Assembly (NCBI GenBank): GCA_021786315.1
Contig: JAJYNN010000002.1
Location: forward strand, 545,494-609,493
Length of the DNA: 64,000 nucleotides
Direction: 5' to 3'
Origin: a bacterium
Lineage (GTDB): Bacteria > Patescibacteriota > Microgenomatia > Daviesbacterales > UBA10151
Below, in pieces: positions 9,536 through 35,593 of this stretch (its first letter is position 1; each line of letters begins with the position of its first letter). The notes under the pieces are model-generated. The model saw only the letters and a program-made list of their open reading frames with translations, was not told where the DNA came from and searched no databases. The translations under genes were made by a program, and so were the position numbers.

Positions 9536-11317
9536 TTATTTAGCACTGAGATTAATTTTGCGGATGCGGATGTTTTTGGGGGTCACTTCCACCAACTCTG
9601 TATCATCTATATATTCCAAGGCATCTTCCAAAGAAATAACCCGAGGGGCATTAAAGTGTTCCGAAACTCCTTCTCCGGAAGACCGGTGGTTTGTTTGCTG
9701 TTTTTCTTTGCAAACATTAATCCGGATATCATCCAACCGGGAATTTTGCCCAATCACCTGGCCAGCATAAACCGGAACAGACGGACCAATAAAAAGTTCT
9801 CCCCTGTCTTGAGCCCCAATCAAAGCATAGAGCTTACTGATTCCGCTTTCGTGAACCACCAAGGATCCTCTTTCACGGACATAAGAGCTTCCGGTATCTT
9901 TCCTAAATTCCAAGAAGGTTACATTAATAATCCCTAAACCGTGGGTGTCGGTAATAAATTCACTGCGGTAGCCAAAAAGCTCTTTGGTGGAAATAATAAA
10001 TTCCATGGTAACCACTCCGTTTTCAGTGTTCATATCCTGCAAATCCCCATGGCGGGTTCCCATCTTTTGCATAACAACCCCGGAGAAGTTTTCCGGCACT
10101 TCAATCAAAACCCTTTCATAAGGGGTAAAAGTTTGCCCATCAATTACTTTCTCGATTACTTGCGGACGGGAAACTTGGAATTCATAACCCTCCCGGCGCA
10201 TTCTTTCAATAAGAATCGCTAAATGGAGCTCTCCTCTTCCGGAAACAATCCAGGAACCATTGCTCTCCTGAACTTTCAAAGCCACATCAGTTTCCAACTC
10301 TCGGTTCAACCTGTCTTGGATTTGCCTAGCGGTTTTAAATTCCCCCTCTTTTCCGGCAAATGGAGAAGAATTAACGCTAAAGGTCATCTTGACGGTTGGT
10401 TCTTCAATGGATAAAAGTGGTAAAGCTTCAGCATTATTAGGATCAGCAATGGTCTCTCCAATAGTGATTTCCGGAATACCCGAGATGGAGACAATATCCC
10501 CCGCCTGTACTTCGCTTGTTTCTACCCTTTCCAAACCCTGATAAGTCATCAACGAAGTTAAGCGGTATTTTTTCTTTTCCCCGTCACGATTGATATGCAT
10601 CACATCTTGGCCAGCCTTGATTGTTCCGTTGTATATTCTGCCTGTAGCAATCCGGCCTTTAAAGTTGTCTCCGGAAATGGCCGCCACTAACATCTGTAAT
10701 GGTTTGTTAGAATCACCGGACGGAGAGGGAATGTGTTCCAAGATGGCATCAAAAATCGGGGTAATATCTTCCATCTTATCCAGCATTGGCTCCAAACCGG
10801 CTTTACCCAGCTTGCTTGAAGAATAAATAACCGGGAAAAAGGCAGTCTCTTCATCAGCCCCAAGTTCCAAAAACAGGTCAAAGGTTTTATTTAAAACATG
10901 CTCAATCCGGGCATCGGGTTTATCAATCTTGTTGATTACCACAATAATTTTATGGCCTAGCTCCAAGGCTCTCTTTAAAACAAATCTGGTTTGGGGCATA
11001 GGTCCTTCCTTGGCATCCACCAAAAGCAGACAACCATCAGCCATCTTTAATACCCGTTCAACTTCCCCTCCAAAGTCAGCGTGTCCTGGGGTATCAATAA
11101 TATTGATCTTGGTATCTTTCCAAATGATGGAGGCATTCTTGGAAAAAATAGTAATTCCTCTTTCCTTTTCCAAGTCATTGCTATCCATGATGAGGTCAGA
11201 ATCTTCAGTAAATTGTTTACCCAATTTGGTCTGTGATTGACGCAGCAAAGCATCCACCAAAGTAGTTTTACCGTGATCAACGTGAGCAATGATGGCAACA
11301 TTTCTTATATTATTCAT
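9536..11317 (-). CDS. typA: translational GTPase TypA/BipA
   Basis: NIRNVAIIAHVDHGKTTLVD, DTPGHADFGGEVER, NKIDK, with EF-G-like domains. Confidence 0.95.
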   Translation of the reverse strand: MNNIRNVAIIAHVDHGKTTLVDALLRQSQTKLGKQFTEDSDLIMDSNDLEKERGITIFSKNASIIWKDTKINIIDTPGHADFGGEVERVLKMADGCLLLVDAKEGPMPQTRFVLKRALELGHKIIVVINKIDKPDARIEHVLNKTFDLFLELGADEETAFFPVIYSSSKLGKAGLEPMLDKMEDITPIFDAILEHIPSPSGDSNKPLQMLVAAISGDNFKGRIATGRIYNGTIKAGQDVMHINRDGEKKKYRLTSLMTYQGLERVETSEVQAGDIVSISGIPEITIGETIADPNNAEALPLLSIEEPTVKMTFSVNSSPFAGKEGEFKTARQIQDRLNRELETDVALKVQESNGSWIVSGRGELHLAILIERMRREGYEFQVSRPQVIEKVIDGQTFTPYERVLIEVPENFSGVVMQKMGTRHGDLQDMNTENGVVTMEFIISTKELFGYRSEFITDTHGLGIINVTFLEFRKDTGSSYVRERGSLVVHESGISKLYALIGAQDRGELFIGPSVPVYAGQVIGQNSRLDDIRINVCKEKQQTNHRSSGEGVSEHFNAPRVISLEDALEYIDDTELVEVTPKNIRIRKINLSAK

Positions 11318-15091: not shown

Positions 15092-16069
15092 ATGGAAGAT
15101 AACCTGCCCAAATCTGATAATCAATTTTGGTATGAAAATCAGCCCAACCATAATGAACCTCTTCAACCACAACCAGAACCTGCTCCTGCTGGTCCTCCAA
15201 TTCAAATAACAGAGAATAAGAAATACTCAGAGAAAAATGACCCGCCGATGGTAGATGTTAAAGTGACCAATCCTGTCTCCTACTTTAAAAAGTGGGTTAA
15301 ACATCTTTTAGGTAATGAGGGTATTGATATCGGTTTCAAATTTAAAGTTAAACCCTTAACCGCCATAGCTTTAATGGTTGCCTTGGCTGTTTCTTTTGGC
15401 ACTGGTTATGGAACTGGATTAAACGCCGCTGCCGGAGTTTTATTCCCCAACTCCTCCCCGCTTTTACACAGAACCGTGATGTACCAAGGAAATTTGCAAA
15501 AGGCAGGTGACAAATATCTTCTAATCCTTCCCAATTCAGATACTTATACTTTAAAACCCAAATCCAATACTAATATTAACTTTCAAAATTTAACTGATGG
15601 CCCGGTTTTAGTTAAAGGAAACTTAACCAGGGAAGCGTTTGTGATTGAACCCTCAGAAGTTATATCTTTAGGTGGTTCAGCCCCTGAGCCGCAAGCTACC
15701 CTTACCCCAACTAACTCTTCCATCTCTAATCCCACCGATTTCCCTAGTCTTTACCCCAGCCTGACTTGGGAAGTAACTCAAGAAAAAGTTTTAATATTTA
15801 CTTCGGGAAAAAGAAAGATCGAACAAAATGGTGTCTACCTGGAATCTGCTCAGGTACCTACTCTTCCTCAAGATTTCTTGAATTACTATACCAATGAGCT
15901 ACAAACCAAAGGTTTTGAGGAAACCTTAAATTCCAAAGATCCGGAAGGAACCACAATCACCTTTGCCAAAAATGACCTCTACTTAACCTTCGGCATCAAA
16001 AACATCTTTAAAGGCTCAGGCGACACCCGCCAACTCTCCGGCTACAAAGCCTTCATAGAACATAACTGA
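15092..16069 (+). CDS. Pro-rich membrane-anchored hypothetical protein (paralog A of 26482..27273)
   Basis: The core DPPMVDVKVTNPVSYFKKWVKHLLGNEGIDIGFKFKVKPLTAIALMVALAVSFGTGY is shared with the island-borne paralog. Confidence 0.5.
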   Translation: MEDNLPKSDNQFWYENQPNHNEPLQPQPEPAPAGPPIQITENKKYSEKNDPPMVDVKVTNPVSYFKKWVKHLLGNEGIDIGFKFKVKPLTAIALMVALAVSFGTGYGTGLNAAAGVLFPNSSPLLHRTVMYQGNLQKAGDKYLLILPNSDTYTLKPKSNTNINFQNLTDGPVLVKGNLTREAFVIEPSEVISLGGSAPEPQATLTPTNSSISNPTDFPSLYPSLTWEVTQEKVLIFTSGKRKIEQNGVYLESAQVPTLPQDFLNYYTNELQTKGFEETLNSKDPEGTTITFAKNDLYLTFGIKNIFKGSGDTRQLSGYKAFIEHN

Positions 16070-16810: not shown

Positions 16811-18406
16811 CTAAATATAGATGGCGCGTTCGTCTAGAGGCCTAGGACACTGGGTTTTCATCCCAGGAATCGCGGGTTCGAATCCCGCACGCGCTACTGA
16901 GAGGGATTGTAAGAAGGTTGTGTTTGATTTCCTCTGCGCGGGTGGGGGCGCGCAGAGCTCTCTAAAGCCCTGATTGTAGTCTACGGAAAGTTGCCGATTC
17001 AATAAAAAGAAGTTCGAGCCGACAGTTTTTGCTCCTATGCTTAAATCGGAGCATGTATTTTTTGCGCGCGCGATTTTTGCGCACGAAAGTGCGCTTCCGA
17101 CCCACTCTCTCATAGGTTCGAGCCAACTCGAACCGTTTTGTCTTATTCTCTCCAAATCTTCCTGAATTTTAAGTTTTTGTTCAAAAACTTCGTTCTTTTT
17201 ACTTTTATAAGTTTCACCATCTATTACCTGATCCAAGAAACTATCAAGTAACAAATTGAGCTTTTTATCTAAAGTTTCCAGCTCGTTTTTTAGGGAGATT
17301 ATATTTTCCTCAATGAACTTTTGCTCCTCAACTTCATCCCGATCCATCCATTTATACCAATCATGAGCCCAACTTTCGGGAATAGACACATCAGAAACAA
17401 TCTTTCTTACTTGTAGTTCTAAATCTTCTTGAGAAATATATTTTTGAGAACAAGGTTTAATTTTCTTAGTGCATCTATAGTAAATAAAGGTTTGTTTATT
17501 ACCATTTTTATATTTTTTAGTATGAGTTTCGGTAGTAATAGCCGCACCGCACTCTCCGCACCTCATCAAACCTCTAAAAGCAAAATCATGGCCATTTTTC
17601 CTTGGTCTTTCAATTCTTTTTATTTCTTGTTGAGCAGAATCAAATAGTTTTTTAGAGATAAATGTTTTATGAGAGCCCTGATAATACTCACCGTTATACT
17701 TTAAAATCCCAATATAAAATCTGTTGGATAGCATTTTCTTTATTTGGTTTATATGTAAAGGTTTTTTGTTTATGGTTGTACTTACCCAACCTCGAGTTAA
17801 CCCTAATTTGTGAAGATAGAGGGATATTTCCTTGTAAGATTTACCTCCCTCGGCAAAAAGTTCAAAGGCCTTTTTAATTGCTAAAGAAGTTTCCGGATCT
17901 ACTTGAACAGTTTTTGTATTCGAGTCGTTTTTATACCCGAAAGGTGCTTTCATTGGCCAAACTCCATTGCGAAGTTTTTGCCTTAGCCCACGTTTTACAT
18001 TTTCTGATAAGTTGTCGACATAATATTTGGATTGGCCAAAGGCAATATTTAGCATAAATTTTCCCTGTGGAGTATTTTCAAACCAGAAGGTAGGGAATTT
18101 AAGGTTTAGAAGATTACCGGTATCCAAGAGGTAAATTATTTGGCCGCCGTCAATTGAGTTACGAGCTAATCTATCGGGATGCCAGGCAATAATACCTTGT
18201 GCCTGTCCTTTCTCGATCTTTTTTATTACCTCTGCGAATTTTTCTCTTCCGGGGAGTTTAGCGGTTTTTGACTCTGTTATAAATTCTTTGATTTCTAAGT
18301 TCTCTCTTTTGGCAAATTCTTGAAGCTCAGCAATTTGAGCCTCAATAGAAAGGACTTGTCTATCCTTCTCATCTGTTGATTTTCGGCAGTATGCTATATA
18401 TTTCAT
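16811..18406 (-). CDS. large serine recombinase (resolvase/invertase catalytic domain + recombinase domain + Zn-ribbon + coiled coil)
   Basis: N-terminal YCRKSTDEKDRQVLSIEAQ (Y-x-R-x-S motif), GIIAWHPDRLARN, a Cys4 ribbon CGECG...YYRC, and a coiled-coil tail. The frame has no stop until 16811, so it reads through IR1-left into the tRNA-Glu antisense. The true 3' end is uncertain. Confidence 0.8.
   Translation of the reverse strand: MKYIAYCRKSTDEKDRQVLSIEAQIAELQEFAKRENLEIKEFITESKTAKLPGREKFAEVIKKIEKGQAQGIIAWHPDRLARNSIDGGQIIYLLDTGNLLNLKFPTFWFENTPQGKFMLNIAFGQSKYYVDNLSENVKRGLRQKLRNGVWPMKAPFGYKNDSNTKTVQVDPETSLAIKKAFELFAEGGKSYKEISLYLHKLGLTRGWVSTTINKKPLHINQIKKMLSNRFYIGILKYNGEYYQGSHKTFISKKLFDSAQQEIKRIERPRKNGHDFAFRGLMRCGECGAAITTETHTKKYKNGNKQTFIYYRCTKKIKPCSQKYISQEDLELQVRKIVSDVSIPESWAHDWYKWMDRDEVEEQKFIEENIISLKNELETLDKKLNLLLDSFLDQVIDGETYKSKKNEVFEQKLKIQEDLERIRQNGSSWLEPMREWVGSALSCAKIARAKNTCSDLSIGAKTVGSNFFLLNRQLSVDYNQGFRELCAPPPAQRKSNTTFLQSLSVARAGFEPAIPGMKTQCPRPLDERAIYI
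16823..16896 (+). tRNA. tRNA-Glu (anticodon UUC)
   Basis: GGCGCGTTCGTCTAGAGGCCTAGGACACTGGGTTTTCATCCCAGGAATCGCGGGTTCGAATCCCGCACGCGCTA. D-arm TTCGTCTAGAGGCC is typical of tRNA-Glu. Anticodon loop TTTTCAT. Confidence 0.9.
16894..16996. repeat. IR1-left: 103-bp perfect inverted repeat (partner 18490..18592)
   Basis: Exact reverse-complement match to 18490-18592, verified base by base. Overlaps the last 3 nt of tRNA-Glu. Confidence 0.9.
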
Positions 18407-18489: not shown

Positions 18490-18592
18490 CGGCAACTTTC
18501 CGTAGACTACAATCAGGGCTTTAGAGAGCTCTGCGCGCCCCCACCCGCGCAGAGGAAATCAAACACAACCTTCTTACAATCCCTCTCAGTAG
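18490..18592. repeat. IR1-right: 103-bp perfect inverted repeat (partner 16894..16996)
   Basis: Exact reverse complement of 16894-16996. Lies between the recombinase start (18406) and IR2. Confidence 0.9.
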
Positions 18593-18703
18593 TACGGTAT
18601 CAACAAATTCGAACCTATTTCAAATCGACGTATGCATCGGTCGGTCGGTAGAAGCCCCTCCGCTTCGCGTCGGGGCCTTCTGATCTTTAAGCTCGGCCTT
18701 CGG
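18589..18703. repeat. IR2-left: 115-bp perfect inverted repeat (partner 28385..28499)
   Basis: Exact reverse complement of 28385-28499. Abuts IR1-right, sharing 4 nt. Confidence 0.9.
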
Positions 18704-21700: not shown

Positions 21701-21782
21701 CATATGCATGTTCATAACCCAATTCATTGAGCCATTCTAATACTGGTTTTTCTGCTAAATTATTTTCATTAAGTTTTGACAT
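18765..21782 (-). CDS. hsdR: type I restriction enzyme R subunit HsdR
   Basis: HTQGSGKSLSMVFYV (Walker A), IVIADEAHRSQY (DEAH box), helicase C motifs. 1005 aa. Confidence 0.95.
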   Translation of the reverse strand: MSKLNENNLAEKPVLEWLNELGYEHAYGPDISPGGTFQERSDYREVVLETRLKRSLKRINPDIPDEKVNEVVDKITKYDHQDLELGNKEVFKWLTEGIRVEVKDKNNDLKGEIVNIIDYRNPDNNEFLVVNQFSVQGSSIRIPDVVVFINGIPVGLFEVKNPVDGKVTIADAYSQIHDLYKKEIPKIFLYNQVLVISDLMKAKHGTISSSFDFFNVWKGIESENEKNLEKSELELLIKGMFNKNHLLDLIENFIVFEADAEKDASKFTKKMAMYHQYFGVNKAIGRTLQAIVSNKKIGVFWHTQGSGKSLSMVFYVNKAKRAEQLKSPTILFLTDRNDLDQQLYKTFLRTGYPTVKQAGSIAGLINQLKGAGSEVLFTTIQKFDTREPLSERENIIVIADEAHRSQYATFAGNVRDVLPNASFMGITGTPISLQNRNTQMVFGEEFSEYPIDKAVEDGTTVPIYYEGRLTPLHVFNKYIDLDFDQLLAEHPIDTKDVLRNKWATLESAIGAEDRLQKVAYDVVFHFINRRYKGKALLVTMSRRIAARMYEIIKTMKGAPEIAVVVSGSKDFQGQIQEELDNREIEKRFKNPEDPLKIVIVCDMWLTGFDVPHLNTLYLDKPLEGHTLMQAIARVNRRYKDKEGGLIVDYIGVADNLKKALAIYTSDVQKQAMVPIEEMVAKMLEHYKKVKKFFEGIEYTNWHKLPSSELASLFARAVNGILTDPVSGGINTAQKDQYLSLSSRLYKFFSLVMPHKAANNIREELEFFEGVRKIIIKNTTVDPIYISNETETAIKDLISKNIVAEGVIDIFSQNGREEPDISILDERFLEDIKKSRFKNLTIEAINKLLKDELKMRRRTNILRYDTLLNKLEEIIEEYENNIINSSKVIDKLLELAREIRQASEVGKEIGLTVEELAFYDALSLGKKSLKDSNLKRIVKEIIHAIRADIAIDWTNHEIIKARVRADVRLVLLRNNISFAEVDLMVDKVYEQAENLYKDYPYIQLSA

Positions 21783-21783
21783 A

Positions 21784-22602
21784 TTAGTGATCTTCCAATT
21801 GTAATTTTTGTTGAGGTTCTTTATATGACTCTATATCAACTACTTTAATTTTGGGAACCTCATAATCACTATTTCTTATTACTATCCCTCTCAACTGAAC
21901 TTTTTCCATTTCAAGATATTCGTGAAATTTCGTCGTACTCTTTTCTTTATCCAAAGGAGAAACATTTAAGGTGTACCCTTTATAAATAAATCCTAAATCA
22001 TTTAATTTTTTATTTATCCGTGTAATTTCTCCATCTATAACAACTTCCTCTCCGTTTCTAAGTTCCGGTAATATGGGATCTTCTTGTTTATCTACATAAA
22101 ATTGATACTTATTATCGCAAGTAATCTTGAATGACTTATCTCCTATAACGATTTCCGCATGTTCGTTGTATTCGCTAACTGGCCTCGCCATTTTTTCTGC
22201 ACCTTTTCTGAAATCATAACTTCTACATAATTCAAAGACCTTCTTGTCGGAAATGGCGTCTAACAATTCTTTTGTGGGATTCTTCAAGCTATTCGATCCA
22301 AATCTATCGATTATTACAAAGGCTGATACTATTATTGTGGCTACATAACTTATTCGCTCTACGGTTTGCCAGGGGTGCTTCTGAACATATATAAGCTTTG
22401 TTCTAACCGAACCATTTTCAATTGGAAGAACGTATATATTATCGTAAGCCAGCATTCCTATTTTTGCTGCTTCTTTTAAACATGTCTCCAAGCCAATAAT
22501 TGCTTCTCCTAACTCTTTAGCTGGCATTGCACTTTTTTCCGCAGAATACACTAAGAATATTTCCGATGAAGAGGGATCGACTTGGAATAGTTGTTGATTC
22601 AT
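21784..22602 (-). CDS. hypothetical protein embedded between hsdS and hsdR (no recognisable domain)
   Basis: 272-aa ORF, translationally coupled on both sides (1-nt gaps) inside the hsdM-hsdS-X-hsdR operon. Confidence 0.5.
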   Translation of the reverse strand: MNQQLFQVDPSSSEIFLVYSAEKSAMPAKELGEAIIGLETCLKEAAKIGMLAYDNIYVLPIENGSVRTKLIYVQKHPWQTVERISYVATIIVSAFVIIDRFGSNSLKNPTKELLDAISDKKVFELCRSYDFRKGAEKMARPVSEYNEHAEIVIGDKSFKITCDNKYQFYVDKQEDPILPELRNGEEVVIDGEITRINKKLNDLGFIYKGYTLNVSPLDKEKSTTKFHEYLEMEKVQLRGIVIRNSDYEVPKIKVVDIESYKEPQQKLQLEDH

Positions 22603-23745
22603 CTAAATTGTTATTTCTCCTTTCATTAATTTTGGTAAAAGCAAATCACGCAAAGCAGTTAATTTTTGATTTTCCAGCTTTAAACTGATCATAGTTCTGT
22701 AAGTAACATCAAAAATATTTATATTTTTATTGTCAGATATAAAAATATTTTGTTCTTTTAAATGCTCTTTTTTAATATGTCCCATGGTCGTAGCTTTGGC
22801 ACCCGCCTGTTGTTGAAAAAATTTTAGCTTCGACTTAAGAAGAAAATATATAAACCCTTTGGAAAAATCACTTGTTGGAACTACATTAAATATATGCTGG
22901 TTTAATATCGCCTTATCTTTATCCCAGATATACAAATCTACTGTACCAGACCAAGAGAATAGCAAGTCACCGTTTTGGATGTAATATTTATCGTCCACCT
23001 TTTTGTCTATCCATTCAGTATTATCTGAAACTCCTCTGTTTAAGTCAGCAATTTTTATTAGCGGAAGTCCTTTCTTCATTCTGTTTGTAATTTTTCCAAA
23101 AGCCCCGCCATTAATATAATTCGCTATATCCAACAATGAATATTTAGTACCTTCATTAGAGGAGAACCATTTTTTAAAAAATGTCTGGGCCATTTCTTCT
23201 AAAGTTTTTGAAATTTTATTGTTCACTTCAATCTTTTCATCTAATGCAGCTAAAATTCTGGAAATTTTTTTTTGTATAGACAATGGAGGGGTTGGAACTA
23301 AAACATTCTCGAAAGTACCAAGATTAATATTGTCTTGTGCGCTACCGATGGCATAACTTTGAATATTTCTCTTAAGATATTGCAGAGAATATAGAATAAA
23401 ATCTGGATCGCTTTTTTCTTCGTCTGCTAAAAAACCGATTACACTATCAGGGAAACACGCCGGAAAAGTTAGTTTTCCTAAATCTGCAATATTTGCTGCG
23501 ATCGTTATACAAATTGTATTAACGGGCCACATCCTACTTTGTTTTAAACCATTTTCACTGTATGTTTGTGAATATGAAGTTATTCGACCACCTGAGGCTT
23601 TCACATCACCTGTTTGTATAAATGGGTACGGACCACCATACAATATCCTTGCGTCTCTTGGCCGATGTCGAGATCTTCCTCTATTAAGTTCACCTAACTG
23701 AGTTAATTTTTTTAATTGCCAATTATCTGGAATCTGATTTTGCAT
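22603..23745 (-). CDS. hsdS: type I restriction-modification specificity subunit HsdS (two target-recognition domains)
   Basis: 380 aa. Duplicated TRD/conserved-helix architecture. Positioned between hsdM and hsdR. Confidence 0.85.
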   Translation of the reverse strand: MQNQIPDNWQLKKLTQLGELNRGRSRHRPRDARILYGGPYPFIQTGDVKASGGRITSYSQTYSENGLKQSRMWPVNTICITIAANIADLGKLTFPACFPDSVIGFLADEEKSDPDFILYSLQYLKRNIQSYAIGSAQDNINLGTFENVLVPTPPLSIQKKISRILAALDEKIEVNNKISKTLEEMAQTFFKKWFSSNEGTKYSLLDIANYINGGAFGKITNRMKKGLPLIKIADLNRGVSDNTEWIDKKVDDKYYIQNGDLLFSWSGTVDLYIWDKDKAILNQHIFNVVPTSDFSKGFIYFLLKSKLKFFQQQAGAKATTMGHIKKEHLKEQNIFISDNKNINIFDVTYRTMISLKLENQKLTALRDLLLPKLMKGEITI

Positions 23746-25537: not shown

Positions 25538-25627
25538 GCCGGAAGCAGTATAGTACTAAAAAATAATTCTGTCAAGTTGTCATCGTGACAACCTTAAATT
25601 AGAAATAATTGCGATACAAGAGTTTCT

Positions 25628-26485
25628 TCAGTAACACTTTTTAGTGCTACTACCCTCTAAATAATAAGACTCTTTTTTAGGATCAAACCGATATGTATTC
25701 TTTTCTTCGGTATCACTTCCATGATCTCCACAAGACCAACCTTGCTCAACCTTCCCTTCAGAATTTGGCAGAAAGTTATCGACCCAGTAGAAAGTTTGAT
25801 CTTTGTTGATTATTGGATAGACAACAGCTTTATTATTGGCCTTACTATATCCCAAGACTAAATGTTCAGTATGTCCACAAGCCAAAGTAAAACCATTTAG
25901 GAGAAACTCATAATAATACCCATCGCCGTTTAAATCCTGAAAATTCATCAAGTCCACATCTGTATACTCGAGTTGTTCTACAGAAGGTTCGCTACCTTCC
26001 AATTTCAAATAAGCCGGATCAGCGTTCATTCTGATATTTTGATAAGCTAAACGGATATTATTGCTTGGAGGTAATGGTTTCCCTGTACTTAAATCTACAT
26101 TAGAGCCCGAACCCGGAATCGAAACATCATTAATAAGTTTGTTGTTTTGTATCAGGGCTAAATGATAGTTACCTTCAATCGCTCTTCCCTCTATGCCGGA
26201 AGCACAAGAAGTATAAGCAGACCATCTGCGGGATGGTTCTAATAATTCGTCTGTTTTAGAGTTTAATACATAGAGCACCAAGTACGATTCAGGAGAAAGA
26301 TTGGGAATTTTCTTATATTCTCGGAGTAATGCTTCTTTGGGAATTAAGTTCTTGATAGAACTGTCGCTAATATTTGTTTTATCGGGTTTATTTATGTTTT
26401 TTGTATCAATTTTTAAAGAGGGAAAATAGAAGAAACCAACAATCAACACAAATGGAATGATAAATAATAACTTTTTTCTGCTCAT
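25628..26485 (-). CDS. secreted/membrane-anchored Cys-containing hypothetical protein
   Basis: N-terminal TM LLFIIPFVLIVGFFYF. No recognisable domain. Confidence 0.4.
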   Translation of the reverse strand: MSRKKLLFIIPFVLIVGFFYFPSLKIDTKNINKPDKTNISDSSIKNLIPKEALLREYKKIPNLSPESYLVLYVLNSKTDELLEPSRRWSAYTSCASGIEGRAIEGNYHLALIQNNKLINDVSIPGSGSNVDLSTGKPLPPSNNIRLAYQNIRMNADPAYLKLEGSEPSVEQLEYTDVDLMNFQDLNGDGYYYEFLLNGFTLACGHTEHLVLGYSKANNKAVVYPIINKDQTFYWVDNFLPNSEGKVEQGWSCGDHGSDTEEKNTYRFDPKKESYYLEGSSTKKCY

Positions 26486-27273
26486 TTATTACTATCAAAA
26501 ATATTTATTTCAGATACATTAATAACATTGGCTTCTCTAGTTAGGTTTCCTTTAACCATTACTTGTTTGTTTATAGAATTGTTGATGGTATTGAGGGCTG
26601 TTTGGGATTTTGGGAGTAGCTTCCATAAAGTTGTATCGGGTAAAGATAAATAGTATTGTCCGTCTTGAGTTTTCTGAATAGTTCCTTGATAGACAATAGC
26701 TCGATGAAGGATAGGGCTTGAGTTAGGGAAAAGAATTCCGGCAGCCGAATTTAGACCAGAGGTATAACCAGTTCCGAAAGAAGCTGCGAGGGCAATCATA
26801 ATAGCTACTGCAGTCATAGGCTTAATTCTAAACTTAAATCCAATATCTATGCCCTCGTTTCCCAAAAGGTGTTTAATCCATTTTTTAAAGTAAGTTACGG
26901 GATTAGTAACTTTCACATCCACCATTGGAGGATCATTATTTTCTGAGTATTTATCATTTTGGGTTACTTGGATTGGAGCAGGGTAAGAGGAATCAGGGTG
27001 ATCAGGGATATTAGGGGAAATTGGAGGATTGGGATTATCAGGGACAGTATAATCACTTTTAATAAAGTGTCCTTGGGCATCTCGCTTTTGGTGTTTTGCT
27101 AATTCACTTTGAACAGGGTCTATTAAGTCAGGAGAAGGATTTGAAGGAATAGGAGGAATGGGGGTATCAGGGAAATTGGGGGGATTCGGGGAAGGAGTTT
27201 GAGCTAATGGTTCGGGTTGAGTTGGTTGTTGAGGGGTAAAGGAATTATTAGGATCAGGCAGTTTGTCATCCAT
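26482..27273 (-). CDS. Pro-rich membrane-anchored hypothetical protein (paralog B of 15092..16069)
   Basis: Shares the DPPMVDVKVTNPVTYFKKWIKHLLGNEGIDIGFKFRIKPMTAVAIMIALAASFGTGY core with the chromosomal paralog. Confidence 0.5.
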   Translation of the reverse strand: MDDKLPDPNNSFTPQQPTQPEPLAQTPSPNPPNFPDTPIPPIPSNPSPDLIDPVQSELAKHQKRDAQGHFIKSDYTVPDNPNPPISPNIPDHPDSSYPAPIQVTQNDKYSENNDPPMVDVKVTNPVTYFKKWIKHLLGNEGIDIGFKFRIKPMTAVAIMIALAASFGTGYTSGLNSAAGILFPNSSPILHRAIVYQGTIQKTQDGQYYLSLPDTTLWKLLPKSQTALNTINNSINKQVMVKGNLTREANVINVSEINIFDSNK

Positions 27274-27339
27274 AAATCCAGTATATCTACTAGATTAGAA
27301 AGGTGCAACTGCAGCGGAAATATACAAAAAGTTATCCAA

Positions 27340-28330
27340 TATATTGTGTATTGACTCGGCTTTCCATACAAGGTGTAAAATTTAATTACTCTCTGCAGTA
27401 GCGGAGGTAGAAGGGAGGGCCATGAATTTGACCCAACTTTTGTACTCCGTGAGTATCTTTGGTAATTGAAACTAGCAAACGGACAAGCAAGGAGGATCCA
27501 AATAACCTTGCTTACTTAATTGTTCAGGGAAGATTACTGACAACACTCTAGCGGAGGCTCACCTTTGTCTTACCTAAAGGTTAAGTGTTGTCTACCGGAA
27601 AATTGGGAGAGAATAACCAATCAAAGCAAACTGAGACGTCGGTTTGGGGAGATATAGGTATTAGGTACTTTTGTAGGTGAGAGGGCCACTCAGTATTCTC
27701 ACTGGGTGGCCTTTTCTTTATTCTCCTTGCAAACTCTTTTCTCTTCTGTGGCGGTTCCGCCGCCCCCGCCCCTTTGGGATAATAACCGTTCAGGAGGGCA
27801 GCACCTTAGAAGAAATCTTTTTGGAATTAGTAGTAAGTAAAATGGGTGCTGCCCGACAATAGCGAGGGCCGAGAAAGCCAAGTCATATTTTAGAAGAACC
27901 GGCCCGAGCCCTCGGAATTAGTGCGAGAAAGTTTCTCGAGAAACTTTCGAGCGGCATGGATGCAAGTAGGGCTAAAAATTGCGGCGGGGGCGATTGCGGA
28001 CAAACCCCCGCAACGGCAGGAGGTATTAGAAAGAAGAAAAGGGTAGGCGAAAAGTACCGAAGGTAACCTTACCCAACGAACTTTTCGCCGAGTTAGATAC
28101 TACCAATACTAGTTCGTAAGGCAACAATATAGGCGAGGCGCCCCCTAGGGCGACCTCTCGCCCAAAAGCGGGGGTGCCGCTACTACTAATTTGGGTGGGT
28201 GGGTTAGTTCAGGATACAAGATTTACTCTTCTTACCCGTTACCGTAGCGGTAACGGTATCCGTAACGGTCCGTTACGGTGATTAGCTTGTCAAAAACCGC
28301 TAAACTCCCCATTCTTAAATATCTTAATAA
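27340..28330 (+). other. ~1 kb GC-rich non-coding region with dense predicted secondary structure (candidate structured ncRNA and/or iteron/ori-like region)
   Basis: No ORF of 62 aa or longer on either strand. GC-rich helices in an AT-rich genome. Several helices only work with G-U pairs on the + strand. Contains a 22-bp perfect palindrome and four ~11-nt CCGTTACGG-type repeats. Confidence 0.3.
27684..27720 (+). terminator. rho-independent terminator-like hairpin inside the non-coding region
   Basis: GGCCACTCAGT-attctc-ACTGGGTGGCC followed by TTTTCTTTA. Confidence 0.5.
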
Positions 28331-28384
28331 TTCTTTAAAAATCGCGCGCTTTTCTGTCTCTTAGCAAAAAATACCAGAGCGAGG

Positions 28385-28499
28385 CCGAAGGCCGAGCTTA
28401 AAGATCAGAAGGCCCCGACGCGAAGCGGAGGGGCTTCTACCGACCGACCGATGCATACGTCGATTTGAAATAGGTTCGAATTTGTTGATACCGTACTAC
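28385..28499. repeat. IR2-right: 115-bp perfect inverted repeat (partner 18589..18703)
   Basis: Exact reverse complement of 18589-18703. Confidence 0.9.
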
Positions 28500-28510
28500 A
28501 AAAGAAAAAG

Positions 28511-28540
28511 TCCTCCCTTCGGGGAGGCTTTTTGTTTTTT
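28511..28540. terminator. bidirectional rho-independent terminator
   Basis: CCTCCC-TTCG-GGGAGG hairpin with a T-run on the + strand (CTTTTTGTTTTTT) and an A-run before it. Insulates the island from the sigma/anti-sigma operon. Confidence 0.65.
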
Positions 28541-28639
28541 AACTGTGATTAGGCAAGAATCTGCGCATCTCGCAGAGCTAAGCAGGTTCGATCAGGCAAA
28601 GCCTGACAACATCTTCGAGCAAAGCGAGAAGTAGTGTTA

Positions 28640-28657
28640 ATCCCCGCACGCGCTACT
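28640..28657 (+). repeat. direct repeat of tRNA-Glu 3' end (putative attR core)
   Basis: atccccgcacgcgctact versus tRNA 16882-16898 atcccgcacgcgctact (one extra C). Preceded by the motif acaacatcttcgagcaaagcgagaagtagtgtta. Confidence 0.7.
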
Positions 28658-31889: not shown

Positions 31890-34800
31890 TCAAGTCAATC
31901 TAACAACACCTTTTCCTAAAATTCCTTCAATGTTTTCAATCATCGCCGGATCAGCTTTCACCCCAAAAGGCAAATCCATCCTTTGTAAGTTTGGCCCTCC
32001 ATTGGGCAAAAGCAAAGCTACTTTAGACTTTCCTGGATACTCACGCAAAGTCCGGTTAATCTTTTGTAGAGTTTCCGCCCCCGCCCCTTTAGGCACCATA
32101 ATTTCCAATTCTTTCTCTTTAACTCTCTGGCTCCCTGATTCACCGGTTCTCTGGCTCTCTGATCTTCCGGTTTTCCGGTCTTCCGATACTTTGGTATCCA
32201 AATTAAAGGTATCCGGATCATAAGAAACTATCCTATCAATCACCAATGAAAGTTGTTCCTCCCTTTTATCCAGTTTGGCCCAGATTACTACTACATTATC
32301 CTTTTCCATACATTGTTTTGAGGTTTCAAAAGTTTTCGGAAAGACCACCGCTTCCATTTCAGAGGTTCCATCCGACACCTGCAGAAAAGCCATCTCAGCC
32401 TGAGTTTTCTTGGTCATCACCTTCTTCACATTGGTAATCACTCCTGCTACCACCACTTTCATTCCCGCCAGTTCCTCGCCTAAGTCCGAAATTTTCTGCT
32501 CGCAAATCCTATTGGCCTGGCGAAGCTTGGAAATATAAGGAGGTTCGTGCAGATAAAATCCTAAAAGGTCTTTTTCAAAACCCAACATCTGATCCAAAGC
32601 CAATTCTTCCACGTCCGGCAAAGGCACAACTATTTCATCAACATTTTCCTCTTCCCCAAATAAAGAAACCTGGTTGGAAGCCACCCTTTTGGCTTGCTGA
32701 TGCACTTTTTCAATGACAGTATCCAAAACCAGAAGCTGGGCTGCCCGGGAACCAAATTGGTCTAAAGCTCCAGCCTTAATCAAGCTTTCCAAAGTCTTTT
32801 TATTCACCAAGCGGTTATCCACCCGAGTGCAAAGATCAACCAAAGAGTTAAATGGTGTTTTCTTTCGGGCCTCAATAATCGATTCAATAGCTGAAATTCC
32901 AACGTTTTTAATTGCCGACATCCCAAAACGTATACCCTGAGCCTGAATTTCCCCTGTTGTTCCGCCAACCTGCCTCTCCAAATCACCTTCACTAAGCTTT
33001 TCCAAAGTAAACCCAACTCCTGATTTATTGACATCAGGTGGCAAAACCACAATACCCATTCTTTTACATTCATCCATGGCATTGGCAATCTTCTCTGCAT
33101 CCCCATACTCGGCCGACATCACCGCCGCCATATATTCAACCGGGAAGTTAGCTTTCATATAACCCGTTTGGTAAGAAACCATGGCATAGGAAGCGCTGTG
33201 GGATTTATTGAAGCCATAAGCCGCAAATTTTTCGATCAGATCAAACAGTTCTTCTGCTTTTTCATGGCTCATCCCTCCCGCCACAGAACCTTCAACGAAA
33301 TGCGCCCGCTGCTTGGCCATCTCCTCCGGAATTTTTTTGCCCATAGCTTTACGGAATTTATCCGCCTCCTCCCAGGTGTAACCGGCAATATTAATAGCCG
33401 TCATAATAACGTCTTCCTGATAAACCAAGAGTCCCAAAGATCTATCCATATAACTTTCCATCCTGGGATCAAGATAAGTAATTCTGGAGGGGTCACGTTT
33501 ACGGGCAATATATTCCGGAATAATTGAAAGTGGACCCGGGCGATATAGGGCAATCATCGCCATGATATCGAAGATATTGGTGGGACGCAGCTCCATCAAG
33601 TACCGAGTCATGCCTGAACCCTCAAGCTGAAACAAACCCATGGTTTCCCCCCGAGCCATCATGTCGTACGTCTTTTTGTCATCAAGCGGTAAATTGCCCA
33701 AATCAACATTAATATCCCGATTATCTTTCACGAATTTAACCGCTTGTCCTAAAATAGACAAATTACGAATTCCCAACATGTCCATCTTAACTAACCCCAC
33801 ACCATCTTCACCAACAGCGAACATATCGTATTGGGTTACAATCTTATCCCCATTTGACTCCCTTTGGAGCGGAGTAAAATCTGTCAGCGGTGTGGGAGCA
33901 ATAACCAACCCGGCGGCATGGACTGAGGCATGACGGACCGTTCCTTCAACCCGCTTAGCAAGCTCTATTAGTTTTTTAACCTGGGGGTCATCCCGATAGA
34001 GCTGGTTGAGCTCGGGAACCTCTTTTAAAGCATCATCTAAAGTCTGGTGAAATCCCTGCTTGGGCGGCGGCACCAGTTTAGCAATTCTGTCTACCTCCCC
34101 ATAGGTCATCCCCAAAACCCGGCCGATATCCCGGATGGCCGCCCGGCCCATCATAGTTCCAAAGGTCACAATATGGGCCACTTTATCCTGACCGTATTTG
34201 TCCATCACGTAGCGGATTACCTCATCCCTTCTGTCGTCAGCGAAATCACTATCAATATCAGGAAGAGACGGCCTCCAGGGGTTTAAAAACCTTTCAAAGG
34301 GAAGTAAGTAATCTACCGGATTAATATTCGTGACCCCCAATACATAAAGGGTAAGCGCCCCAGCAGCTGAACCTCTGGTATTAGTGATAATACCATGCTC
34401 GTGTGACCAGTTAATAAAATCGTGGACAATTAAAAAATACGTTCCGTACCCCTTTTGTTCAATAACAGAAAGTTCATAATCCAATCTTTCCCGAAGCCTT
34501 CCATCATCATTGGGGAACTTTTCTTTAAATTTTTCATCACACATCTCTTTCAAATAATCCATTGGTTTTTTACCACCTGGAACATCAAAAATAGGAAAGT
34601 ACGGCTTTCCAAGGGTTATCTCAAAATCAATTTTATCTGCCACTTTTAGGGTATTACTAATAGCGTCAGGGATTTCACTAAACATAGCGGACATTTCTTC
34701 TGTAGAGCGAATATAAAGGTTGGGGGTATCAATCATCCGCAGGCGGTTAATATCCCGAATATACTTTCCGGTTTGGACACAAAGGACTGCATCCTGAGCC

Positions 34801-35513
34801 TCAGCATCATCGGCCTTAACGTAATGGTAATCGTTGGTAGCAACAATTGGGATGCCAACTTTGGGGCTCAACTCCTGAACGGCTTTCCACCAAATCTTTT
34901 GGAACTTTTCCATCCTTTGGAGGTCTTGGATAACCTTGGGGTCAAGATTTTTGTTCTCAGCTAAAATTTTGGCATATTCGTGATCCTGTAACTCTAGGAA
35001 ATAATTTCCTTCCCCAAAAATAGATAAGTAATTTTTAACGATCTCCTCCCCTTTCTTAAAATCATCTTCCTTTAAACTCTCTGCAAATTCCCCTCCGGGA
35101 CATCCGGAAAGTGCAATAATTCCTTCATGAAACTCTTTTAAAAGCTCTTTATCCACCCGAGGTTTGTAGTAGTAACCATCAAGGTAAGCAATAGAAACCA
35201 GCTTCATCAGGTTTTTATAACCCTCAAAGTTTTTGGCCAGGAGTGTTAAATGGTAAGGTTCAGTATCAATTTTCCCTTCTTTGTCCTTGTGTGACCTTTT
35301 GGCCACATAAACCTCACACCCCACAATTGGTTTAATCTCATTATCCAAACAAGCCTTATAAAACTCGATTGCTCCATACATCGAGCCGTGGTCGGTCACG
35401 GCCACTGCCGGCATTTCCATCTCTTTGACAGCCTTAACCAGCTTTTTAATCTTAGATAAACCATCAAGAAGGGAATATTCTGTATGACCGTGGAGATGAA
35501 CGAAGTTAGCCAT
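31890..35513 (-). CDS. dnaE: DNA polymerase III alpha subunit
   Basis: PHP domain FVHLHGHTEYSLLDG, polymerase core, HhH, and OB fold. The C-terminal region carries a short tandem-repeat insertion. Confidence 0.95.
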   Translation of the reverse strand: MANFVHLHGHTEYSLLDGLSKIKKLVKAVKEMEMPAVAVTDHGSMYGAIEFYKACLDNEIKPIVGCEVYVAKRSHKDKEGKIDTEPYHLTLLAKNFEGYKNLMKLVSIAYLDGYYYKPRVDKELLKEFHEGIIALSGCPGGEFAESLKEDDFKKGEEIVKNYLSIFGEGNYFLELQDHEYAKILAENKNLDPKVIQDLQRMEKFQKIWWKAVQELSPKVGIPIVATNDYHYVKADDAEAQDAVLCVQTGKYIRDINRLRMIDTPNLYIRSTEEMSAMFSEIPDAISNTLKVADKIDFEITLGKPYFPIFDVPGGKKPMDYLKEMCDEKFKEKFPNDDGRLRERLDYELSVIEQKGYGTYFLIVHDFINWSHEHGIITNTRGSAAGALTLYVLGVTNINPVDYLLPFERFLNPWRPSLPDIDSDFADDRRDEVIRYVMDKYGQDKVAHIVTFGTMMGRAAIRDIGRVLGMTYGEVDRIAKLVPPPKQGFHQTLDDALKEVPELNQLYRDDPQVKKLIELAKRVEGTVRHASVHAAGLVIAPTPLTDFTPLQRESNGDKIVTQYDMFAVGEDGVGLVKMDMLGIRNLSILGQAVKFVKDNRDINVDLGNLPLDDKKTYDMMARGETMGLFQLEGSGMTRYLMELRPTNIFDIMAMIALYRPGPLSIIPEYIARKRDPSRITYLDPRMESYMDRSLGLLVYQEDVIMTAINIAGYTWEEADKFRKAMGKKIPEEMAKQRAHFVEGSVAGGMSHEKAEELFDLIEKFAAYGFNKSHSASYAMVSYQTGYMKANFPVEYMAAVMSAEYGDAEKIANAMDECKRMGIVVLPPDVNKSGVGFTLEKLSEGDLERQVGGTTGEIQAQGIRFGMSAIKNVGISAIESIIEARKKTPFNSLVDLCTRVDNRLVNKKTLESLIKAGALDQFGSRAAQLLVLDTVIEKVHQQAKRVASNQVSLFGEEENVDEIVVPLPDVEELALDQMLGFEKDLLGFYLHEPPYISKLRQANRICEQKISDLGEELAGMKVVVAGVITNVKKVMTKKTQAEMAFLQVSDGTSEMEAVVFPKTFETSKQCMEKDNVVVIWAKLDKREEQLSLVIDRIVSYDPDTFNLDTKVSEDRKTGRSESQRTGESGSQRVKEKELEIMVPKGAGAETLQKINRTLREYPGKSKVALLLPNGGPNLQRMDLPFGVKADPAMIENIEGILGKGVVRLT

Positions 35514-35593
35514 TTTTCTGTCCCATTTTAACAGCCTAATGGATCCCCATTTCAAGTGGGTAGATTACATTTAAAATTTCCAATTCTCAATTT

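Follow-up and report, generated by a model that had tools for sequence, protein, structure and literature searches.

What does an uncharacterised gene do when it sits between the specificity and restriction genes of a type I restriction-modification (R-M) operon? The question is raised by gene X, a 272-amino-acid (aa) open reading frame (ORF) with an ATG start at positions 21784-22602 on the minus strand of a 64,000-nucleotide (nt) stretch (the window) of contig JAJYNN010000002.1, from a bacterium of the Patescibacteriota (assembly GCA_021786315.1). Time and again, genes lying inside restriction operons have turned out to be defences that act independently or in cooperation (PrrC, TgvAB and the HEC systems). 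According to Payne et al. (2024, bioRxiv 10.1101/2024.01.29.577857), over half of the genes found within type I systems lack characterisation and are likely to be related to defence. The answer that we tentatively favour, at somewhat short of an even chance, is that X is a defence-type accessory gene that sits within the type I operon and is translated together with it, and in which a predicted oligonucleotide/oligosaccharide-binding (OB) fold would serve as sensor. By sequence comparison, X belongs to a rare two-domain superfamily, with DUF7946, LAPAL_fam and PDC-S42 as relatives, that appears to travel with restriction nucleases.

The type I system around X is complete. An earlier reading of the window by a model (the original prediction) gave the gene order hsdM-hsdS-X-hsdR, which the Pfam matches of the neighbouring genes bear out; all three core subunits are present, and all four genes lie on the minus strand. 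The same reading placed 1-nt gaps on both sides of X. As read from the sequence, the gap between X and hsdR is indeed 1 nt, as is that between hsdM and hsdS, but the hsdS stop codon abuts the X start codon directly (0 nt). A simple consensus scan found no minus-strand terminator-like site from hsdM through the end of hsdR. The best promoter-like match of the region stands just upstream of hsdM (Table 1); such sites are no more numerous in the region than expected from shuffled sequence, and this consensus match is suggestive only. Co-expression of X with the restriction complex, also claimed earlier, is well supported, both by these 0- to 1-nt junctions and by three further type I operons (HsdR only 31 to 66% identical) in which X lies no more than 9 nt from hsdR. 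HsdM itself is long (596 aa), with HsdM_N beginning at residue 84 behind an N-terminal extension of ~80 residues that has no assigned domain. Because the promoter-like site ends only 10 nt ahead of the annotated ATG, the true hsdM start may be further downstream.

Conservation indicates that X is a real gene. A search of 5.8 billion clusters returned a close family of 30 proteins (238 to 304 aa) that are 37 to 67% identical to X and share its start, and their alignment holds 18 invariant and 32 nearly invariant residues, which rules out a chance ORF. A split or extra Hsd subunit is likewise ruled out, since no Hsd-type Pfam domain (HSDR_N/ResIII, N6_Mtase/HsdM_N or Methylase_S) was found in X and all three subunits are complete. 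Judged by its homologues, the family is rare: an exhaustive profile search of 1.84 billion representatives gave a superfamily of 236 proteins at E up to 1e-3, with only 14 at E up to 1e-30. Among the 150 matches listed, the only conspicuous fusion was a protein of 442 aa (the longest listed) with an extra C-terminal domain. JGI metagenomes contained three X-family loci, of which the two new ones are too short to be of use; plasmid searches returned only two Vibrio chromid loci, which hold a remote relative; and the family was not found in one-genome-per-species GTDB contigs.

The superfamily clustered into four clades. Comparison with hhalign aligned the X family over both domains and its full length with clade A, the largest, composed of ~320-aa proteins, some with weak PDC-S42 matches (probability 99.8%, E 2e-27). 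PADLOC and Pfam matches of the superfamily were counted over 100 members; 27, from clades other than that of X, weakly match the PDC-S42 profile PDLC05015 (best E 5e-9) and 17 weakly match DUF7946 (PF25678) at E up to 0.1 (best E 6.9e-6). The N-terminal domain of X appears remotely related to DUF7946, LAPAL_fam and PDC-S42, and its first strand and LGEAxxG helix align with both DUF7946 and LAPAL_fam. Both of these families are uncharacterised, and X falls below both of their thresholds, with no match to DUF7946 at E up to 10 among the 30 X-family members (Pfam gathering threshold, 27 bits). By these alignments, X is a divergent clade of a superfamily flagged in catalogues but never characterised. 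Literature searches on the X clade, the LAPAL motif, DUF7946/PF25678 and PDC-S42 found nothing relevant. The kind of gene that X represents, one of no characterised function that lies within a type I operon and has a catalogued defence candidate among its relatives, is already known.

The contexts of the family were compared at 11 independent X-family loci, the window included (Table 1). At seven, the X-family gene lies directly beside R-M genes, of type I in four cases and of type ISP, MmeI-like type IIG and HinfI-type II in one case each. Homologues thus do recur beside R-M genes of four types, which was the check proposed with the original prediction. Wherever the system is of type I (four of four), X is immediately upstream of hsdR, with gaps of 1 to 9 nt. 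X is 55 to 58% identical where HsdR is only 31 to 39% and HsdM 29% identical, and because it is more conserved than this restriction backbone, X behaves like a module that can be carried from system to system, not like a subunit that diverges along with its partners. The interval from hsdS to hsdR looks like a hotspot where cargo varies. Located between X and either hsdM or hsdS are an SDH_protease (ClpP-like) gene and a 58-aa ORF in one operon (L010/L011, 6869-7953), DUF4145 and DUF2321 genes in a second (L015, 3789-4756), and a DUF3800 gene and a 142-aa ORF in a third (L017, 3339-4719). A YgjP-like gene follows hsdR in L010. Further afield, two remote X-superfamily members adjoin genes for small phospholipase D (PLD)-family nucleases, one on a Vibrio chromid and the other on an island resembling an integrative and conjugative element (ICE), which also carries GmrSD, a serine recombinase and type IV secretion system (T4SS) genes. 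The two PLD genes (L014, 8677-9150; L020, 6790-7281) encode proteins of 157 to 163 aa of NgoFVII/Nuc type that have no detectable similarity to each other, and the near-identical Vibrio aquimaris relative (94% amino-acid identity) has no PLD neighbour.

This arrangement also brings in the main rival explanation, which we consider rather unlikely, namely that X serves the restriction nuclease specifically, as its cofactor or regulator, and is produced in step with HsdR. As a cofactor, X would use its OB-fold to direct or load the nuclease onto DNA structures such as single-stranded regions, forks or ends; as a regulator, it would restrain the nuclease, much as in restriction alleviation or an antitoxin-before-toxin gene order, while a mobile restriction cassette establishes. 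X keeps its place ahead of hsdR in all four type I operons even where HsdR identity falls to 31%, the gene adjacent to it elsewhere is again a nuclease gene (MmeI-like, PDDEXK_1 or Cas4/DUF2779-like), and the PLD genes beside the remote relatives add to this pattern. The perfect inverted repeats and serine recombinase that flank the cassette (see below) make establishment in new hosts a plausible problem. A dedicated partner is harder to reconcile with the four of 11 contexts that have no adjacent restriction gene or recognisable nuclease (three uncharacterised neighbours of solitary homologues gave nothing when compared with PDB sequences), with the lack of co-divergence between X and HsdR, and with the mechanistic differences among the partners (type I, ISP, IIG and II), which argue against a specific protein-protein interface. 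The acidity of the OB domain also speaks against it, and most type I systems function without an X-like protein.

According to the original prediction, X has no recognisable motif. This stands for sequence libraries: X matches no Pfam family, PADLOC gave nothing for it at E up to 1, searches of NCBIfam and PHROGs gave nothing above threshold, and a profile search of the PDB returned noise only (best E 0.027). It does not extend to structure prediction. AlphaFold2, given the 30-sequence alignment, produced a confident model (mean predicted local distance difference test [pLDDT] score, 82.8) in which the C-terminal domain is predicted to be an OB-fold, a five-stranded closed beta-barrel with a helix between strands 3 and 4. 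It resembles the nucleic-acid-binding OB-folds of the RecG wedge, RPA, SSB, PriB and the MCM N-terminal domain at 8 to 20% identity, a fold similarity and not family membership. The X domain differs from these in being acidic throughout the family (median isoelectric point [pI], 5.0; net charge, -5.5) and in being fused to an N-terminal domain without structural counterpart. The conserved OB residues R195, N197, F205, Y207, R243 and K253 favour putative nucleic-acid binding. C41, C126, C162 and H227 are conserved in the X clade as a possible zinc site, though not across the superfamily, where only G37, G64, S65, P179 and G191 are nearly invariant.

The absence of a transmembrane segment, as first predicted, is probably correct, though not secure. 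The 19-residue Kyte-Doolittle mean of residues 80-98 lies just above the classical transmembrane threshold of 1.6, yet the helix is amphipathic in many close homologues, where it contains Asn, Asp and Ser (VVGIDLVANLFNNSFQLIDRFGA). A small-residue-rich hydrophobic helix recurs ~15 residues after the GS motif (e.g., TYVAVSTVVMALCAVITII and LVGGGVGIGAAIIGGVAAI), and the equivalent helix reaches 1.6 or more in 10 of 13 X-clade and 8 of 12 clade-C representatives (medians, 1.76 and 1.93). This conserved position suggests a specific version of the defence reading, in which X would be a membrane-inserting abortive-infection effector whose latent transmembrane helix is released when the OB domain senses infection, depolarising the cell. 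Single-pass membrane effectors are common among abortive-infection systems. We nevertheless judge this version quite improbable, given the amphipathic character of the helix in so many homologues, the lower medians of clades A and B (1.31 and 1.38), and the AlphaFold2 model, where the hydrophobic helix (residues 85-101) is packed inside the globular N-terminal domain with pLDDT values of 86 to 94.

Comparison with known systems places X near a catalogued candidate and away from characterised ones. The PDC families ('phage defence candidates') were derived through guilt by embedding, from genes that lie within BREX, DISARM and type I systems, and then entered PADLOC; the same paper gives type I systems as the near-exclusive location of PrrC (Payne et al. 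2024, bioRxiv 10.1101/2024.01.29.577857). X is like the single-gene candidate PDC-S42 in size (profile, 302 positions), in superfamily and in the kind of evidence, since embedding of the type that defines the PDC families is found for X here and in three other type I operons. With PrrC, RloC and TgvAB, the last an independent defence system embedded in the type I cluster of Vibrio cholerae VPI-2, X shares its position as an extra gene nested among, and co-expressed with, hsd genes. Unlike them, X has no ABC-ATPase/Walker A, HEPN or GmrSD domain and no PADLOC match to these systems, and it accompanies type ISP, IIG and II systems in addition to type I. PrrC and RloC combine an N-terminal ABC-type ATPase with a C-terminal anticodon nuclease motif, for which X has no Pfam, NCBIfam or PADLOC match. 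The earlier statements that X is not PrrC/RloC-like and carries no ATPase motif are accordingly upheld, by the PADLOC search at E up to 1 and by a pattern search that found no Walker A motif in X.

A phage connection was also considered. NCBIfam NF053583 (LAPAL_fam), described as a 'LAPAL motif-containing putative phage structural protein', matches residues 16-175 of X (E 4e-6; 26.4 bits, far below the 60-bit cutoff), X is weakly similar to PHROGs 32975 and 3243, and Foldseek found three phage proteins in BFVD that match X over its full length (E 6e-8 to 5e-7). X could on these grounds be a passenger derived from a phage or mobile element and without a defence role, whether a structural or morphogenetic remnant or a gene for an anti-defence or entry-exclusion function; its island, with a large serine recombinase beside tRNA-Glu, and the remote relative on the ICE-like element with T4SS genes would fit such an origin. 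We regard this as very improbable. X and two remote relatives have no tblastn match in 50,697 phage genomes, the X family has no relative in IMG/VR, no other phage genes flank X in the 11 contexts, and the translational coupling within restriction operons is conserved. If X does prove to be only a passenger, it would show that guilt by embedding needs functional confirmation. The best BFVD match is a phage protein named 'DUF6575 domain-containing' in UniProt, and DUF6575 is present in one PD system of Vassallo et al.; no sequence link between DUF6575 and X was found, with no PADLOC match and no DUF6575 among the Pfam matches listed.

We infer a defence function for X, with its ligand and effector mode, from several lines that point the same way: the tight coupling within an operon free of terminator-like sites, the seven contexts directly beside R-M genes, the variable cargo near X (SDH_protease, DUF3800, DUF4145 and DUF2321, with HEPN_AbiU2 nearby), conservation exceeding that of the restriction backbone, the superfamily links to clade A and PDC-S42, the company of the remote relatives (PLD nucleases, GmrSD, a serine recombinase and T4SS genes), and the island location with its shift in GC content. 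In the proposed mechanism, the C-terminal OB-fold would be a sensing or ligand-binding module, its ligand most likely being single-stranded or branched nucleic acid or another phage-derived ligand, and the N-terminal alpha/beta-helical domain with the conserved hydrophobic helix would be the output module, acting by oligomerisation, membrane association or contact with a partner nuclease. X would then back up restriction as a second layer, for instance where restriction has been evaded. The solitary copies suggest that X can probably act on its own.

Several observations weigh against an accessory defence role. Only 11 contexts were sampled, and four of them are solitary or without R-M neighbours, two among housekeeping-type genes. 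The constant position directly upstream of a nuclease gene fits a dedicated cofactor at least as well. X is tied to PDC-S42, DUF7946 and LAPAL_fam only weakly, at scores under the family thresholds; no PADLOC model, the two for PDC-S42 (PDLC05015 and PDLC05016) included, matches X or the X-clade member P0036 at E up to 1, and PDC-S42 is itself a candidate only. No catalytic motif is conserved across the superfamily, the acidic OB domain is atypical for a general nucleic-acid binder and tempers the case for binding, and the hydrophobic helix, being amphipathic in many homologues, may simply be a buried core helix. The auxiliary defence or abortive-infection role first proposed thus gains a defence link from comparative genomics, through the seven R-M contexts and the PDC-S42 relatives, while the four other contexts stand apart from it. 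Homologues outside defence contexts were one half of what, by the original prediction, would refute it, and these four go that way; the other half, a metabolic or housekeeping domain, was not found in X, and the prediction is not refuted overall.

A broader possibility, in our estimate unlikely, is that restriction nucleases have in the X superfamily a general partner that had gone unrecognised, an OB-fold sensor translationally coupled to PD-(D/E)XK or PLD nucleases of unrelated R-M types. Such a partner would couple cleavage, or failed cleavage (e.g., through an anti-restriction protein), to a second response, such as nuclease guarding combined with abortive infection, or an attack on phage replication intermediates recognised by their structure. 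A partner of this kind would be especially interesting in the Patescibacteria (candidate phyla radiation [CPR]), whose reduced genomes are generally reported to rely mainly on R-M for defence and in which experimental knowledge of immunity is sparse. X is a well-defined, experimentally tractable lead rather than a surprise. Its family makes a useful test case, being small (~30 close homologues and ~236 representatives), with a clean two-domain architecture and a constant nuclease-adjacent position across four R-M types, and these three features make it practicable to ask whether embedded genes work by themselves or via the restriction enzyme.

Table 1. Features of the window around gene X and the gene arrangements at the 11 X-family loci
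Feature	Positions	Strand	Evidence or arrangement
Gene X	21784..22602	-	ORF and translation; 30 homologues at 37-67% identity; AlphaFold2 pLDDT 82.8; two-domain predicted structure
X N-terminal domain, residues 1-143	22174..22602	-	Predicted beta-alpha-beta-beta, then helical bundle; conserved MPAKxLGEAIxG and GS motifs
X hydrophobic helix, residues 80-98 (TVERISYVATIIVSAFVII)	22309..22365	-	Kyte-Doolittle 19-residue mean 1.76; borderline transmembrane
X C-terminal OB-fold (predicted), residues 186-259	21826..22047	-	Three strands, helix, two strands; conserved ILPELxNG motif just before
hsdM, type I methyltransferase subunit, 596 aa	23747..25537	-	Pfam N6_Mtase E 4e-103, HsdM_N E 9.5e-25
hsdS, type I specificity subunit, 380 aa	22603..23745	-	Pfam Methylase_S E 9e-36; two target-recognition stretches
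hsdR, type I restriction subunit, 1005 aa	18765..21782	-	Pfam HSDR_N, SWI2_SNF2, ResIII, T1R_D3-like, T1RH-like_C
hsdS stop/X start junction	22600..22605	-	TAG (22605-22603) abuts ATG (22602-22600), 0 nt; sequence read
X stop/hsdR start junction	21780..21786	-	TAA (21786-21784), 1 nt, ATG (21782-21780); sequence read
Sigma-70-like promoter match, best of region	25547..25575	-	TTGACA-17-TATACT, 11/12; just upstream of hsdM; consensus scan
orf263 and orf285, directly upstream of hsdM	25628-27273	-	4-nt start/stop overlap
Large serine recombinase, 531 aa	16811-18406	-	Resolvase, Recombinase and Zn_ribbon_recom domains
tRNA-Glu(TTC)	16823-16897	+	
103-nt perfect inverted repeat pair	16894-16996 / 18490-18592		Brackets serine recombinase gene
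115-nt perfect inverted repeat pair	18589-18703 / 28385-28499		Brackets 9.7-kb block orf263-orf285-hsdM-hsdS-X-hsdR
typA	9536-11317		
dnaE	31890-35555		
Context: window			hsdM-hsdS-X-hsdR
Context: P0005 (L015)			hsdM-DUF4145-DUF2321-hsdS-X-hsdR
Context: P0007 (L017)			hsdS-orf-DUF3800-X-hsdR
Context: P0008 (L010/L011)			hsdM-hsdS-orf-SDH_protease-X-hsdR; HEPN_AbiU2 nearby
Context: P0012 (L005)			Type ISP enzyme upstream, X, Cas4/DUF2779-like gene 73 nt downstream
Context: P0019 (L008/L009)			X, then MmeI-like type IIG enzyme directly downstream
Context: P0013 (L018)			HinfI-family endonuclease, methyltransferase, X, PDDEXK_1 gene overlapping X stop by 38 nt
Context: P0026 (L001)			No adjacent R-M genes; housekeeping-type surroundings
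Context: P0014 (L019)			No adjacent R-M genes; housekeeping-type surroundings
Context: P0028 (L007)			No adjacent R-M genes; near recA; UvrD-PDDEXK protein 4 kb off
Context: P0025			Contig end, near Fic gene; no adjacent R-M genes

TypA, encoded in the window, is 73 to 81% identical to its counterparts in metagenome-assembled genomes of Microgenomates and Candidatus Daviesbacteria, which makes the host, with its contig of ~0.94 Mb, a Patescibacteria (CPR) bacterium close to Candidatus Daviesbacteria. The restriction block has a GC content of 0.33 to 0.37, against 0.39 to 0.46 in its flanks, which points to an acquired island, and it adjoins the large serine recombinase gene and tRNA-Glu. The 3' end of the recombinase ORF runs antisense across the entire tRNA-Glu(TTC) gene; the recombinase C-terminus may therefore be altered by an integration junction, or its true stop may lie elsewhere. 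Two pairs of perfect inverted repeats organise the island (Table 1). Their inner arms abut with 4 nt in common (GTAG, the complement of CTAC), and their outer arms start, respectively, from the tRNA-Glu 3' end and from a point just within a bidirectional terminator-like hairpin (28512-28527). By this arrangement, the internal 214-nt site is the reverse complement of the island's right end joined to its left end and would be attP-like. In an independent Logan contig (L012, 9741 nt), both ends fall 30 nt inside the 115-nt arms, which shows that the reads contain the repeat. The repeats could belong to a restriction cassette able to invert or move, or could be an effect of the assembly graph, and the restriction block is an acquired, possibly mobile or invertible cassette.

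The two genes directly upstream of hsdM, orf263 and orf285, have no Pfam, PADLOC or NCBIfam match. The orf263 product is proline-rich at its N-terminus and also contains a hydrophobic segment and a C-terminal domain, and the gene is a diverged paralogue (307 nt at 73%, inverted) of a 325-aa ORF outside the island (15092-16069, plus strand). Upstream of orf263 lies an ORF-free stretch of ~1.38 kb (27274-28650) with a higher GC content (0.44 to 0.45) and many perfect GC-rich hairpins. It has no Rfam match at gathering thresholds and noise only at E up to 1. For positions 27700-28300, RNAfold gave z = -5.2 when the operon strand was folded and -3.1 for its complement, and the stretch could be a large structured RNA, an array of hairpins like repetitive extragenic palindromic (REP) elements, or a decayed element.

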